Positions 27,913-33,372 of a stretch of 64,000 nucleotides of DNA are shown here, one piece after another. Position 1 is the stretch's first letter, and every line of letters begins with the position of its first letter. The position numbers and the translations under genes are program-made. The stretch is from Candidatus Babeliales bacterium (GTDB lineage: Bacteria; Babelota; Babeliae; Babelales; Vermiphilaceae). Location: positions 530,568 to 594,567 of the forward strand of contig CAVUQO010000002.1 of assembly GCA_963743635.1 (NCBI GenBank), given 5' to 3'. The notes beneath the pieces were generated by a model. The model had not been told where the DNA came from, made no database searches, and was given only the letters and a program-made list of their open reading frames with translations.

Positions 27913-28021
27913 GCTTTTTGCCCTGATCGGTCTGTACAATTGGCGCAATAATTGGTAGTCTGGGGAATATGTAGGTTATAATGTGAGCCAAATTCTTTGG
28001 TTCATAGAGGGAATAATTATC

Positions 28022-28930
28022 ATGAATATATATCTAAAAAATCTAGTCTTAGCGCTCGCTTTATGCGGTATGCCGCTTAACATCTATGCCGACACGCAAA
28101 ACGCAGCTGAAATTAATGCAGCTGAACCTGTAGCAGCAGTTTTTAATATCCCCAAGATTGAAACAATTCGCATAGACTCCAAACAACAACATTTTGATCG
28201 CGTAGCTACTCGTTATCAGTACCTAAAATGGGGCTGTATAGGGGCATTGTCAGCGTATGTGGTATATAAAAATTTCATACAATCTGATACCATAGCGCCG
28301 GAAGCCAAAAAATTGGCAGAACTTACTCAACAAGTAAATAGTCTGGCTGAGCAGGTTGAAAAATTGGGTAAACCAGCAAATGAAAGTTTATTGTCGCGGA
28401 TTGGTAGCACCGTAAGTAACATTAGTTTTGGCCTTGGGTTGAGTACCTTTATCCAAATTGTTGCCTATTCTATAGCGAGTAATAAATTAAGTCGCCTGGT
28501 AGACGTTGATAGTTTTTGGGAGACGATGCGATCCGAACCTGATTTGGTAAAAGGTATTATTGCGAAAAGCAAACGACTGGTGCCGGACATGAGCAAAGCT
28601 CCACTGACCAGCCTAGAAACAGATCATCTATGCCGTATGATCCAAGATAGTGGTGTGCTTCTTAAGAAAAACATTGAAGCGCTGATTGGCTTTATACGCC
28701 ACAAACAGAGCCAGGATAAAGATCTTGATCCTATCATTGTCGCACAAATCAATGATCAAATTCTCTATCTAACTATGACTTTTAACCATTTTGCTGAAAA
28801 AATGACCACTCTTTTGAATACTGACTATAGCAGCATGGATAAAAAGTCTGCGGCTATCATAGAGTGCGCGCAGCAATTTGGTGATGATTATGGCGTGATC
28901 AGAGATCAGTTTAAGGTACTCGCCGACTAG
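28022..28930 (+). CDS. Secreted/membrane hypothetical protein
   Basis: Signal peptide MNIYLKNLVLALALCGMPLNIYA; coiled-coil and hydrophobic segments. Confidence 0.75.
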   Translation: MNIYLKNLVLALALCGMPLNIYADTQNAAEINAAEPVAAVFNIPKIETIRIDSKQQHFDRVATRYQYLKWGCIGALSAYVVYKNFIQSDTIAPEAKKLAELTQQVNSLAEQVEKLGKPANESLLSRIGSTVSNISFGLGLSTFIQIVAYSIASNKLSRLVDVDSFWETMRSEPDLVKGIIAKSKRLVPDMSKAPLTSLETDHLCRMIQDSGVLLKKNIEALIGFIRHKQSQDKDLDPIIVAQINDQILYLTMTFNHFAEKMTTLLNTDYSSMDKKSAAIIECAQQFGDDYGVIRDQFKVLAD

Positions 28931-29150: not shown

Positions 29151-29516
29151 ATGGCAGAACAAAAACGAGGCCAATCGCCCGCAAAACCAGAAGAAATGCC
29201 GGTTTTCGAACAATATGCAATTTTCCAAACAGGCGGTAAACAATACCAAGCTATCCCTGGAAAAACGATCGAAATCGAAAAACTTGAAGGTGATGCTGGT
29301 AGTTCAATCGAATTTACTGAAGTATTGCTCAGAAAAACAGGTGACAAGAATGTTGAAATCGGCCGACCATACGTGGCAACTCCGGTAAAAGCATCTATCA
29401 TCAAACACATGCGTGGACCGAAATTGATTGTCTTTAAATTCAAGCGCCGTAAAAAGGTTCGCGTGAAAAAAGGACATCGTCAGCCACACTCAGTGGTTCG
29501 TATCGAATCGATATAA
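29151..29516 (+). CDS. rplU: 50S ribosomal protein L21 with an N-terminal extension
   Basis: YAIFQTGGKQY...IGRPYV...KKGHRQP. Confidence 0.96.
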   Translation: MAEQKRGQSPAKPEEMPVFEQYAIFQTGGKQYQAIPGKTIEIEKLEGDAGSSIEFTEVLLRKTGDKNVEIGRPYVATPVKASIIKHMRGPKLIVFKFKRRKKVRVKKGHRQPHSVVRIESI

Positions 29517-29567: not shown

Positions 29568-29597
29568 AAGGCAGGATTTTTTAAATCCTGCCTTTTT
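29568..29597 (+). terminator. rplU terminator; related copies at 31551-31580 and 32116-32150
   Basis: aaggcaggattt-tt-aaatcctgccttttt. Confidence 0.8.
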
Positions 29598-29887
29598 CCT
29601 TTTATATGGGCAAAAACAGCTGCCAACCCTGGGGGTTGGCCTTTTTTTTATTCTAGGTAGCCCAATATCAAAAAGCCCCTCCTCCTCCCTGCGAGCCCAG
29701 CACTCCCCTTCACCCTCTATTTTTTAGACAAAATATTACCAATAAGAAAAATATTATACCTTAAAAAAGGCTGGTTTGGCTGTTTTTTGCATTTTTGAGG
29801 GTAGGGGGGCGGTTGCGCAAAGTTTTCAATTTGATAATATTAAGAGTAGATAAAGTATTTTTAATCAAATAATGGGAGACTAATAGT

Positions 29888-30187
29888 ATGAAACGTATTT
29901 ATTTTAAAATTATCGTTCTTATGGCTGTTTTTGCTGTAGCAACACAGATGCAGGCGGGTAGGCCGAAAACAGCGCATGCAAAGCATGAAAAAGGGAGCCT
30001 CGTGACGCCTGCAGAACAAGACATAATGTTAGCAGCCGTCGCCAGCACCGATCAACCGCTCGAAAACTATTCATTAGAATCGAGTCTCAATAACTTGTCA
30101 GTAGAAAAAGTTGCAGTATTAAGTGCGCAATTAGAAAATACATTGAAAAATTTACATTACTCAGAGAGTCTTTTGTGGCGATCGTAA
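29888..30187 (+). CDS. Secreted hypothetical protein, MKRxY-leader family
   Basis: MKRIYFKIIVLMAVFAVATQMQA. Confidence 0.7.
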   Translation: MKRIYFKIIVLMAVFAVATQMQAGRPKTAHAKHEKGSLVTPAEQDIMLAAVASTDQPLENYSLESSLNNLSVEKVAVLSAQLENTLKNLHYSESLLWRS

Positions 30188-30213
30188 TAGTATAAATTTA
30201 ATGGAGGATTATA

Positions 30214-31530
30214 ATGAAACGTACTTATTTTAGAATTATAGGCCTTACGGCCATATCAATAGCTTCGCAGCACGCGTATGCGATGCAGAATGTAGTGAAG
30301 ACAATGTCGCGATTGATGCCGGTAATAACGGCATCAGCCAGAACAGCCGTCACCCCAACGGTTGCACCAGCGGCACGATTATTTACGGCGCAACCTGCAC
30401 GCTTAGCATCTACGGTTGCATCGCGTAATACATTTGGCTATCAGCCGGTTGAGAATGCAGCGCTTTTTGGAAGATCATTTTCTAGTACCGCAATCAGGCA
30501 TAAACCAGATTTTAGTTCTAAGGATCCCTACAAAGTACTCGATGTAAAACCTGGATCTTCAAAAAAAGAGATTAAAGCAGCTTATTATAAAGCTATGCAA
30601 GAAAATCATCCCGATACAAATAATCATCCCGATGCAAAATCGAACGCTCAGAAACTTAATGATGCCCATGCAAAGCTGACAGAAAAAGATACAGATGATC
30701 AAGGCTTTCAAGCCGAGGGATTTCAAGATGATTTCCAGAAAGCTGCGGCTTATCATCAAACATTCTATCAACCTTCAGCAAACCGCCAAGCGGCAATAGA
30801 TAGATCATTTTCATATGCATATCGTTGTGAACTTCCTGCACATATTTACGGTAATTTCCACGGTAAAGGGCCGCACTTTTTTGAAGGTGGGCGAGTTATA
30901 GCAGTAGGTTTACGCTCTTTTGATCGAGAACCTGTTGATCCAGATCATGTGAGAGGCGAAATTACCTTCCGACAATTTGGTTCAGGGATTCTTGACGGAG
31001 AATATTTAGAGGTTGAATATACCCGCCCAATCACTGCAGAAGATCGCGCAGCGAAAGCAAAAGTTAAAGAAATACTAGAGCGCGAATTGCCTGACATTGA
31101 AAAAAGACGGCTGGCTATTCTTGATAAGTGGGTTGAATATGGCGCATTGGATAACGACTATAATTACTTGTTAAATAAACGCGAAAACAAGTTTGTTGAC
31201 GTAGAAGCGTGTGACTTTAAATTGGGCTTTGGATTTATCTTGTATGATCGATATAACAAATTTGGCACTACGGTAGTGAATAAGGCAGAAAGAGCAAATA
31301 TCATTTTTGGAAATGTAGTTGATCAAGTGACTATAGACGATCTTATATACCATAAACAATGGAAATGTCTTGATCAATACGTCAATAAGAGCATTGTAAA
31401 TGAAAAATGGGATCTTGAAAAAAATCATGAAAATCTCGTGAAAAAGTATGAAGAAGCATTAGCGATTCATAAGCAAAAGCAATATAACAACATGATTGAT
31501 CGCATGATCGGTGATTCAGAGCCGTACTAA
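30214..31530 (+). CDS. Secreted J-domain protein with a mitochondrial-presequence-like segment
   Basis: MKRTYFRII...HAYAM leader; Arg/Ser/Thr/Ala-rich stretch ending GRSFSSTAIRH; DPYKVLDV...EIKAAYYKAMQENHPD. Confidence 0.8.
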   Translation: MKRTYFRIIGLTAISIASQHAYAMQNVVKTMSRLMPVITASARTAVTPTVAPAARLFTAQPARLASTVASRNTFGYQPVENAALFGRSFSSTAIRHKPDFSSKDPYKVLDVKPGSSKKEIKAAYYKAMQENHPDTNNHPDAKSNAQKLNDAHAKLTEKDTDDQGFQAEGFQDDFQKAAAYHQTFYQPSANRQAAIDRSFSYAYRCELPAHIYGNFHGKGPHFFEGGRVIAVGLRSFDREPVDPDHVRGEITFRQFGSGILDGEYLEVEYTRPITAEDRAAKAKVKEILERELPDIEKRRLAILDKWVEYGALDNDYNYLLNKRENKFVDVEACDFKLGFGFILYDRYNKFGTTVVNKAERANIIFGNVVDQVTIDDLIYHKQWKCLDQYVNKSIVNEKWDLEKNHENLVKKYEEALAIHKQKQYNNMIDRMIGDSEPY

Positions 31531-31770: not shown

Positions 31771-32091
31771 ATGAAACGTACTTATTTGACTATATTTGCT
31801 GTGGTGGCACTCTGTGCGGGAATGCATCAATTACAGGCAATGCATAGCGAAGAAATGAAGAGGATAAACAGGCGTATAAGTGTGCTAAAATACAAGGGTA
31901 ATACTGAAAGAAATAATATTGAAATGTCTGAATTATATGCGCGAAAAAGAGAACTAGAGCGACTTGACGTGGAGCAAGCTGCGCGAGGGCTCAGACAGAT
32001 GAGGCAGGAGCCACAGGGTAGAGATTCAGACGATGACGAGTTTAGACAGATGCAGCAGGAGCCACAGGGTGCAGATTCAGACGATGAATAG
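31771..32091 (+). CDS. Secreted hypothetical protein, MKRxY-leader family, with an acidic C-terminal tandem repeat
   Basis: MKRTYLTIF...QLQAM; RQMRQEPQGRDSDDDEF / RQMQQEPQGADSDDE. Confidence 0.7.
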   Translation: MKRTYLTIFAVVALCAGMHQLQAMHSEEMKRINRRISVLKYKGNTERNNIEMSELYARKRELERLDVEQAARGLRQMRQEPQGRDSDDDEFRQMQQEPQGADSDDE

Positions 32092-32219
32092 ATACTAGTG
32101 AATCAAATGAACCAAAAGAAGGCAGGATTAAACTCCTGCCTTCTTCTTTTTCTCAAAGTATTGATTATAGGGCTTGATTTGAACTATCCTCATAAAAAAG
32201 ATCGTATAAAGGGGGGACT

Positions 32220-32633
32220 ATGAAAAAGCTTGGGGAAAAAATTGGCTTTTTGGGAATTATGCTCTTATTAATGTCGTATCTGCATGGTGTTGCATATGAT
32301 ATGCAATGCACGGGCATGTTTATCAATAATAAAGTCGATCGTAAAATGCTCATACGTTTTTATAATGAATTTAATGATGAGCAACAGCGCTATGAGAGTT
32401 TGCCCAATGAGCATCGCGAAGTCAGGCTCAAGAATGGCGTTATGCAGCGATTGACGCGCGTGAGTGTTACGATGAGAGATCCAGAGACTGGTAATGATAT
32501 CATGAAGGATCTCGATTATGAGACTAGTCCGAAAAACAAAATTGTTGGTTTAGAAATAATCATGAATCCCGATCTTCAATTGCGATGGCATTATGAGGAT
32601 GAGGATCTTAAGCAAAATCCCTCAACTAAATAA
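32220..32633 (+). CDS. Secreted hypothetical protein
   Basis: RBS aaaggggg; hydrophobic N-terminus. Confidence 0.65.
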   Translation: MKKLGEKIGFLGIMLLLMSYLHGVAYDMQCTGMFINNKVDRKMLIRFYNEFNDEQQRYESLPNEHREVRLKNGVMQRLTRVSVTMRDPETGNDIMKDLDYETSPKNKIVGLEIIMNPDLQLRWHYEDEDLKQNPSTK

Positions 32634-32637
32634 TATT

Positions 32638-33372
32638 TCAGGCAGCTATGCGCTTGAAATATGCCAGAAATTCTTTGTTGCCGGTCGCGCCTTCGATAGG
32701 CGATTCAGTGACGCCGATGCATGAAAAGCCGACGGCTTCTATTCCTTTGGTCACGTGTTCAATCACGCTTTGATGGATAGCGGGATCTTTGATGATGCCC
32801 CCGCGGCCTACTTGTCCTCGTTGTGCTTCAAATTGCGGTTTGATGAGCACAATCATCTGACCATCATCTTTGAGCACGCTCAGGATAGCATCCATAACTT
32901 TCAGCACAGAGATAAAAGAAAGATCGAGTGTTACGAGATCAACTTTCTCACCAATATCACGCACTTCGCGCAAATTAGTGCGTTCTTTTACGATCACGCG
33001 TGGATCGGTACGAATTTTTTCATGAACTTGTCCATAGCCCACATCGATGCCGTATATTTTTTGTGCGCCGCGTTGCAGCAAGCAATCGGCAAAACCGCCA
33101 GTTGAAAGGCCTGCATCGAGGACTATCAAATTGGTCACGTCAATATTGAAATGGTCGAGCGCTTTTTCAAGCTTGAGACCAGCGCGACTGACATATTTTG
33201 GTTCTTCAATGTTGAGCGTTATGCGTGCATCATCTGGAACGAGGATGCCGTTTTTGGTTATAACGGCATCATTAACGATCACTTTTCCTTGCATAATCCA
33301 GCTTTGAATTTGTCGGCGGCTGTATTCTGGATGAAGCTCTAACAGTTTAACATCAAGTCTTTTCTTGCTCAT
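32638..33372 (-). CDS. tlyA: TlyA family rRNA methyltransferase
   Basis: S4-like RLDVKL, YVSRAGLKL, LDAGLSTGGF, DLSFIS, LIKPQFE, GNKEFL. Confidence 0.95.
   Translation of the reverse strand: MSKKRLDVKLLELHPEYSRRQIQSWIMQGKVIVNDAVITKNGILVPDDARITLNIEEPKYVSRAGLKLEKALDHFNIDVTNLIVLDAGLSTGGFADCLLQRGAQKIYGIDVGYGQVHEKIRTDPRVIVKERTNLREVRDIGEKVDLVTLDLSFISVLKVMDAILSVLKDDGQMIVLIKPQFEAQRGQVGRGGIIKDPAIHQSVIEHVTKGIEAVGFSCIGVTESPIEGATGNKEFLAYFKRIAA

Follow-up and report, generated by a model that had tools for sequence, protein, structure and literature searches.

The subject of this report is a gene of Candidatus Babeliales bacterium (assembly GCA_963743635.1, contig CAVUQO010000002.1) that encodes a J-domain protein, hereafter the J protein. 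It lies in a window of 64,000 nt, the whole stretch of DNA that was analysed; positions given below are those of the window, unless they carry a locus id of their own. The open reading frame (ORF) occupies 30214..31530 on the + strand and specifies 438 aa from an ATG start. From the N-terminus, and all on the + strand, the product carries a putative Sec-type leader (residues 1–23, 30214..30282), a basic, acid-poor module that resembles a mitochondrial presequence (residues 24–96, 30283..30501), a J domain (residues 104–159, 30523..30690) and a C-terminal part of 274 residues (residues 165–438, 30706..31527). The genome is a metagenome-assembled genome of the Babeliales (Dependentiae/TM6), 1.45 Mb in three contigs with 42% GC and 85% complete, and the J-protein gene has the GC content of the genome. 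MutS of this genome shares 49–58% identity with the MutS proteins of metagenome-assembled genomes labelled Candidatus Babelota, Babeliales, Dependentiae or TM6, a top group in which a few labels are generic or look wrong, and at most 42% with the group that comes next.

A Shine-Dalgarno sequence, GGAGG, can be read directly at 30203..30207 (+), 6 nt 5′ of the ATG at 30214; inspection of the sequence upstream of the Met24 codon (30283) revealed no site comparable to it. The leader is of a type common to six genes of the genome, among them both genes flanking that of the J protein. When the DNA of the six genes is aligned the likeness begins exactly at the ATG, and a purine-rich site stands at the usual spacing 5′ of each. 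The leader is real coding sequence, and translation of the J protein starts at Met1, behind a strong ribosome site. The n-region, MKRTYFR, places three positive charges in front of an uncharged hydrophobic core of 11–12 residues, followed by AYA and then Met24, and the leader passes a rule-based screen for a positive n-region, an uncharged core and small residues at −3 and −1 (A-Y-A). Residues 1–23 thereby look like a Sec-type leader, with cleavage predicted after A23.

Of 424 leader-like ORFs, 54 have methionine as the residue just behind the predicted cleavage site (12.7%, compared with 2.2% Met in the proteome; the sites in this count were placed by a crude rule). Two examples of this A-then-M junction are in the window, at 30280–30285 and 31837–31842, and it is also seen in leader proteins of related genomes. 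Such junctions may be left over from the original starts of genes to which a leader was added later, may serve as a second start site, or may reflect a preference of the peptidase.

In the J protein, the sequence that links the leader to the J domain contains no hydrophobic segment. The three positive n-region charges, together with the lack of a later hydrophobic segment, would place the J domain on the outer side of the cytoplasmic membrane. Neither Hsp70 nor ATP is present in the periplasm, and a single Hsp70 (dnaK) locus was found in the genome (G000:C3:746287-747997, minus strand, L136); for these reasons a J domain behind a Sec leader would be expected to act beyond the bacterium. In the dnaK locus itself the reading frame alternates over five pieces (0,1,0,1,0), each piece being good DnaK sequence, and at least two of the frame shifts are not at homopolymers. 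Compared with the contigs of three runs, the locus found almost only pieces 90–95% alike, from other organisms; its frame pieces reflect either an assembly error or a freshly broken gene.

The module begins with Met24 and is rich in Ser, Thr and Ala. Its 73 residues include seven Arg, one Lys, a single acidic residue (E80), 16 Ser or Thr (22%), 13 Ala (18%) and five Pro, for a net charge of +7, and it is closed by GRSFSSTAIRH at residues 86–96. RSFSSTAIRH (residues 87–96, 30472..30501, +) fits, as a regular expression, the R-10 motif of sites cut by the mitochondrial processing peptidase (MPP) and then by Oct1/MIP, published as R-X-(F/L/I)-XX-(S/T/G)-XXXX (PMC7996597). An earlier note on this DNA, written from the letters alone, had described a leader ending HAYAM, which corresponds to residues 1–23 with AYA followed by M. 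It had gone on to describe some 70 residues rich in R, S, T and A, with one acidic residue and the ending GRSFSSTAIRH, and this holds in full (73 residues, E80). The processing motif of RxF(S/H)xT type that it recognized there is likewise present as R-x-F-S-x-T, an exact fit to the published R-10 form.

The composition of the module is not that of exported proteins at large. In most of the genome's leader proteins the residues that follow the leader are acidic, so a basic stretch at this place is not a general export feature. Under a lax leader rule, only 17 of 755 leader-like ORFs have an acid-free first 50 mature residues, and these are mostly membrane proteins or Gly-repeat proteins.

The J domain is matched by Pfam PF00226 with E 1e-12 (48.4 bits compared with a cut-off of 27.8, over profile positions 1–57 of 63). 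Its HPD tripeptide at residues 131–133 (30604–30612) aligns with that of human DNAJA3, and a second HPD occurs at residues 137–139. Among sequences of the PDB, matches cover the J domain only, the best being human DNAJA3 (E 7.5e-7), with Thermus DnaJ2 (E 1.4e-6) on a par with it. The domain is 36.5% identical to that of the genome's own DnaJ and 41–53% identical to those of foreign small J proteins. NCBIfam DnaJ models reach the J part alone, at 19–31 bits compared with cut-offs of 338–619. Of the features of class A and B DnaJ proteins, neither a DnaJ_C nor a DnaJ_CXXCXGXG match was found with Pfam, and there is no CxxC in the sequence. Two further statements of the earlier note, that a J domain with HPD comes right behind the basic stretch and that the C-terminal domain is not the zinc finger or C-terminal domain (CTD) of DnaJ, agree with these results.

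The C-terminal part appears to be an orphan. A HMMER search of 1.84 billion representative sequences with the J protein gave 512 matches at E 1e-3 or better, of which the best 150 were considered; in none of these 150 does the best-scoring stretch extend past residue 227. When residues 164–438 were compared with all six frames of the phylum's 260 other genomes, one match was obtained (G240, E 1e-3), to an ankyrin-repeat leader protein, which we took as chance. The ESM Atlas gave no usable match to the C-terminal part, and an AlphaFold2 model of it made without an alignment has a mean predicted local distance difference test score (pLDDT) of 33.5. In a word-index search the whole J protein found only itself, and the same kind of search with the J region against shorter proteins gave five candidates, none of which reached a score; a scan of genome contigs with the J protein gave 88 pattern matches, none of which was confirmed.

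A second copy of the module was found by screening leader proteins for acid-free mature N-termini. It is carried by P0158, a protein of 754 aa (G000:C3:671055-673319; locus L074:301-2565), whose leader ends AQA and is followed by Met and by a stretch of 87 residues (25–111) that ends RSLSSTAVQR and contains eight Arg, three Lys and one acidic residue, for a net charge of +10. BLASTP aligns residues 1–95 of the J protein with residues 1–110 of P0158 at 30% identity (E 3e-4), and nothing else in the two proteins aligns outside the leader and module. Both copies are, in the manner of a presequence, net positive, Arg-rich and nearly without acidic residues. Arg outnumbers Lys by 7:1 in the J protein and by 8:3 in P0158, in a genome whose proteins hold more Lys than Arg. 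The peak helical moment is 0.54 in the J protein (mature residues 3–20) and 0.63 in P0158 (mature residues 1–18). RSFSSTAIRH and RSLSSTAVQR both fit the R-10 motif, which is a match of pattern and says nothing of cleavage itself, and both also show R-x-F/L followed by S, the R-3 processing form.

The pattern GRS[FL]SSTA occurs in only two ORFs in a six-frame scan of the genome, those of the J protein and P0158. Among the 37 identical aligned residues of the two module copies, 21 are in different codons. The island ARTAV is kept with five of five codons changed, and the island AL-GRS-SSTA with seven of nine, including TCT/AGT switches for serine and AGA/CGC switches for arginine. Because codons have changed at kept residues, the copies must be old, with the islands held by selection on the peptide, and are not the product of recent copying. 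The comparison indicates that leader plus acid-poor module form a conserved portable unit, apparently under purifying selection, on unrelated cargo.

The cargo of P0158 is a C-terminal domain of 300 residues from a multi-copy, often tandem family that has no Pfam match; of the phylum's 260 other genomes, 77 have members of it. A model of the domain built from 11 sequences has a pLDDT of 82.3 and a predicted template modelling score of 0.84. Foldseek with this model returned nothing at E 1e-3 or better. The top of a wide structural search was made up almost entirely of ADP-ribosyltransferase folds, with Z scores of at most 4.0, which is below the meaningful level, so that the modelled likeness to ADP-ribosyltransferases is only a lead.

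J domains are common in relatives of this bacterium. A J-domain match was found in 79 of 80 genomes of the family, and at least two matches in 48 of the 79 others (these are matches, not copy numbers). Forty loci of J matches other than DnaJ (L096–L135), a non-random sample drawn from the top of the list, yielded 33 J-domain ORFs. By rule, 28 of these 33 have a leader with a cleavage-type site, and two more have a hydrophobic start only. The distance from cleavage site to J domain in the 28 is at most 25 residues in eight ORFs, 26–120 in five and more than 120 in 15; the eight with the shortest distance resemble the J proteins of the lumen of the eukaryotic endoplasmic reticulum. Four of the five linkers of 26–120 residues are acidic, with 7–26 acidic residues each, and one is acid-free. 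The ORF with the acid-free linker (G244, L117:2386-3375, minus strand; 329 aa) has a leader, Met25, a linker of 39 residues of which 11 are basic and none is acidic, and then the J domain. Another ORF, of G215 (L134:2113-3459, minus strand; 448 aa), failed the leader rule, its leader being judged by eye; behind the leader come Met23 and 80 acid-free residues with RSFS twice, and RSFST precedes the J domain. BLASTP aligns the G215 protein with the J protein at 28% identity over 139 aa (E 1e-8), and Pfam confirms the J domains of both the G215 and the G244 protein. In each, as in P0158, the Met behind the leader is the equivalent of Met24. As judged from these sequences, the layout of leader, basic acid-free stretch and J domain is one that recurs in two other Babeliales genera.

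The same arrangement, apart from the leader, is familiar from eukaryotes. A DnaJ-domain protein of the yeast Ascoidea rubescens (P0005, XP_020045924.1) is 43% identical to the J protein in an alignment of 74 residues that starts at LFGRTFSSS and runs on through the J domain. The position of the J domain could be located in 148 of the 149 non-self matches listed; it is N-terminal in 53 and lies behind an extension of 24–139 residues in 70, and 38 of the 70 listed matches with an extension pass a crude presequence rule. Like P0005 and DNAJA3/Tid1, the J protein has a basic, acid-poor N-terminus, an R-x-F-S-S site 16–17 residues ahead of the J domain, and HPD. Unlike them it is bacterial, with a Sec leader in front and an orphan C-terminus that has no glycine/phenylalanine-rich region, zinc finger or CTD. 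By the scores obtained, the J domain of the J protein is no nearer to organellar J domains than to others. A eukaryotic origin of the J domain was considered and the claim dropped, since scores of the J domain alone do not separate presequence-type matches from those with an N-terminal J domain.

As to export machinery, the genome has two secretins and two full matches to the ATPase of type II secretion systems; one match to this ATPase is split over two frames. There is no match to VirB4 or to FHIPEP, the export gate of type III secretion, in this 85% complete genome, and Sec plus secretins are the only export route found in it. In Babela massiliensis the type II system is described as the only secretion system, and leader-bearing ankyrin proteins are thought probably to be secreted into the amoeba; three lineage-specific DnaJ-domain proteins are also reported there, of unclear role and as part of an ‘excess of chaperones’ (PMC4378268). 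In Chromulinavorax 44% of coding sequences have signal peptides, and a mitochondrion of the host wraps the bacterium, which is not inside it (PMC6561590). DNA of the present genome occurs in peat and soil metagenome runs, with no RNA run among those listed.

We propose that the J protein is an effector that is delivered by Sec and a type II-like system and imported into host mitochondria to engage mitochondrial Hsp70, a reading that we put somewhat short of an even chance. The earlier note had inferred such two-step targeting, by bacterial export and then import into host mitochondria, and the comparison with P0158, with related genera and with eukaryotic J proteins lends it partial support. 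That it is a host-directed J-domain effector of some kind we consider probable. In the proposed mechanism Sec would export the J protein, signal peptidase would cut after AYA, and a secretin-based (type II-like) route or outer-membrane vesicles would release the protein from the bacterium. Once in the host cytosol, the N-terminus at Met24 would act as a matrix presequence, a basic, acid-poor stretch with a putative amphipathic start; the module forms the N-terminus seen by the host cytosol only if the leader is cut after A23. TOM and TIM23 would take up the precursor, and MPP, then Oct1 or Icp55, would cut at the conserved RS-F/L-SST. After such processing only a few residues would precede the J domain, an arrangement also seen in the mitochondrial J proteins of eukaryotes. 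The J domain could then stimulate the ATPase of mitochondrial Hsp70 while the orphan C-terminal part gives specificity for client or site.

A broader form of this proposal takes in P0158. Babeliales may possess a portable, cleavable mitochondrial presequence that stands behind a Sec leader and has moved between cargos (in this genome a J domain and a domain weakly like ADP-ribosyltransferases), re-addressing exported proteins to the matrix, with the J member taking over mitochondrial Hsp70; related genera would have basic versions of their own ahead of J domains. We advance this as possible, and only tentatively. If it is true, the J-domain member could pull in or fold co-delivered effectors through Hsp70 as the import motor, or could reshape the organelle, as the mitochondrial wrapping seen with Chromulinavorax brings to mind.

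Several observations weigh against mitochondrial import. Substrates of type II systems exit folded, and mitochondrial import needs unfolding. At 73–87 residues the module is long for a presequence, and it has 4–5 prolines. Its amphipathicity is modest, the observed helical moment being reached by 159 of 2000 shuffles of the first 48 mature residues of the J protein and by 72 of 2000 shuffles for P0158. A pattern as short as R-10 would often arise by chance in sequence rich in R, S and T. The enrichment of presequence-bearing proteins among the matches is partly circular, as the query contained the basic stretch, and the J domain alone scores alike against presequence-type and N-terminal-J proteins (medians 38.0 and 38.2 bits). 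A profile made from the two module sequences found the module in this genome alone when 260 other genomes of the phylum were searched (four weak matches there, E 7.7e-4 to 9.5e-3, share at most the leader and the first residues), and among the longer of 5.8 billion proteins it found only the J protein and P0158. As to the relatives, the G215 protein fits R-x-F-S only and not the full R-10 motif, and in both it and the G244 protein the J domain is followed by a hydrophobic segment that could, on export by Sec, keep the protein in the bacterial inner membrane.

Other explanations accept that the J protein is secreted towards the host. The basic stretch may not be a matrix signal at all, and may instead direct the protein to another compartment, such as a plastid, or tether it to the mitochondrial surface in the way of Toxoplasma MAF1b; we think this unlikely, though worth keeping in view. 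For a plastid, a leader followed by a stretch like a transit peptide would resemble the bipartite signals of secondary plastids, and the composition of the module (22% Ser plus Thr, 18% Ala, five prolines) and its length of 73–87 residues also fit transit peptides. The first mature residue is Met, however, and not the aromatic residue expected for import into the stroma of secondary plastids, and the closest match across the junction is a protein of yeast, which has no plastid. The strong excess of Arg over Lys (7:1 and 8:3) despite a Lys-richer genome background, and an amphipathic peak at the very N-terminus, argue against another compartment in general. The surface form supposes that the protein holds the import machinery and Hsp70 and so ties the organelle to the bacterium. 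It is favoured by Chromulinavorax, which is wrapped by the host mitochondrion without entering it (PMC6561590), and by the dependence of MAF1b-driven mitochondrial association on TOM70 and HSPA9. Bacterial precedent for an organelle-associated Hsp70 binder comes from HopI1, which binds host Hsp70 and sits at chloroplasts (PMC8982422).

Others would keep the protein, or at least the meaning of its module, within the bacterium. The module could be a bacterial device that serves as a propeptide, as a signal by which the secretin pathway sorts or secretes the protein, or as a flexible tether, with a role at the envelope or surface and a likeness to presequences that is compositional. The islands ARTAV and GRS[FL]SSTA could then be sites of recognition or cleavage for a bacterial factor; the module is restricted to one lineage; some related leader-bearing J proteins have later hydrophobic segments, and the layout of another J protein of this genome, P0155 (leader, coiled-coil, membrane segment and C-terminal J domain; G000:C2:46676-48142, L002), fits a DjlA-like arrangement with the J domain in the cytoplasm. 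Against such a device, the J protein itself has no membrane segment between leader and J domain, its J domain would have no known periplasmic partner given the one Hsp70 locus found, most leader proteins are acidic where the module is basic, and mitochondrial J proteins of eukaryotes as a rule show this layout beside their J domain; we judge the device improbable. It is more improbable still that presequence and J domain are a relic, a unit from a gene of a eukaryotic host that gained its leader later and has no present role in targeting. The 54 Met junctions among 424 leader-like ORFs could mark old starts, and the J domain does share more identity with foreign small J proteins than with the genome's own DnaJ. 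An unused stretch should decay, however, and the islands have been kept across saturated synonymous sites and on a second cargo of bacterial type; the GC content is that of the genome, and scores of the J domain alone do not single out a eukaryotic origin. Translation from Met24, or from both Met1 and Met24, would make the protein a cytoplasmic partner of the bacterium's own DnaK. Met24 is directly behind the leader, at a place where Met is common in this genome, and yet GGAGG precedes Met1 with nothing comparable before Met24, and six genes have kept the leader as coding sequence, which makes such a start scarcely credible.

The proposed import into mitochondria can be set beside known systems. 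In effectors of fungi and oomycetes a transit peptide or presequence can stand behind the signal peptide, and N-terminal mitochondrial signals are carried by bacterial effectors such as Map and EspF of enteropathogenic Escherichia coli and Ats-1 of Anaplasma. These bacterial proteins are injected by type III or type IV systems and are not known to have a Sec leader; the order of leader and then presequence is known from eukaryotic pathogens. The J protein would share with effectors that mimic targeting peptides a secretion signal that comes first and a host organelle signal exposed on the mature protein. Organelle-targeting mimicry is in itself known. No report of a bacterial J protein with Sec leader and presequence, nor of secreted J proteins in Dependentiae, was found in the full-text literature searched, from which most subscription journals fall outside. 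Work on organelle-targeting effectors includes LOCALIZER (PMC5353544) and studies of Map (PMC7492733).

Three systems come closest in their parts, and each departs from the J protein in some respect. DjlA-type proteins are accessory J proteins of bacteria with a hydrophobic N-terminus, and P0155 may be one; the J domain of DjlA is cytoplasmic behind a membrane anchor, whereas that of the J protein would be placed outside, and the NCBIfam model for DjlA gives the J protein 27.5 bits compared with a cut-off of 162. MAF1b of Toxoplasma gondii is likewise secreted, and recruits host mitochondria in dependence on TOM70 and HSPA9; it differs in being a protein of a eukaryotic parasite that stays at the vacuole membrane, with no J domain and no sequence relation. 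HopI1 of Pseudomonas syringae is reportedly delivered by type III secretion, and is said to carry a C-terminal J domain, preceded by a P/Q-rich repeat region, and to lack a recognisable transit peptide. For the J protein, unlike HopI1, no export gate of type III secretion was found in the genome, the J domain is at residues 104–159 of 438, and a presequence-like module is ahead of it. The likeness lies in a bacterial J-domain effector, which in the case of HopI1 binds host Hsp70 at a host organelle (PMC8982422).

These findings bear on how plain Sec-leader proteins reach targets in the host. The Dependentiae, a widespread group of protist parasites, take up ATP from their hosts, and one or more of them remodel the host mitochondrion. 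We know of no effector mechanism described for the phylum. If the mitochondrial reading is true, the J protein would be the first case in bacteria of a J-domain effector directed at mitochondrial Hsp70, and targeting-peptide mimicry, known from fungi and oomycetes, would have evolved in a Sec-dependent bacterial system. Dependentiae genomes could then be screened for mitochondria-directed effectors by a simple and testable rule, a leader with a presequence behind it, and the extra DnaJ-domain proteins that make up the Babela ‘excess of chaperones’ would be directed at the host.

The J-protein gene is the middle one of a cluster of three genes with the same leader family. Upstream is a gene for 99 aa (29888..30187, +) with no Pfam family at cut-off, and downstream one for 106 aa (31771..32091, +) with an acidic repeat tail. 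A terminator-like hairpin at 32116..32145 (+) ends the cluster, and a matching terminator-like pair is found at 29568–29640, after rplU; both come from a consensus scan only, as does the count of nine terminator-like sites compared with 2.5 expected from shuffles. More widely, four leader-like genes without a Pfam family surround the J-protein gene (27983–28930, 29888–30187, 31771–32091 and 32220–32633), and the bounds of these surroundings are rplU (29151–29516) and a gene for a TlyA-like methyltransferase (32638–33372, minus), so named from the look of its sequence. A further member of the leader family, elsewhere in the genome (G000:C3:134313-135701, L003; 462 aa), has weak WD40/beta-propeller matches, all below Pfam cut-offs. 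The gene directly upstream of that for P0155 encodes a protein of 192 aa (G000:C2:45840-46418, L076) with an N-terminal membrane anchor, an acid-free basic stretch of 50 residues and a DUF498 domain (PF04430, E 1.8e-8); this is a family that includes the mitochondrial complex I assembly factor NDUFAF3.

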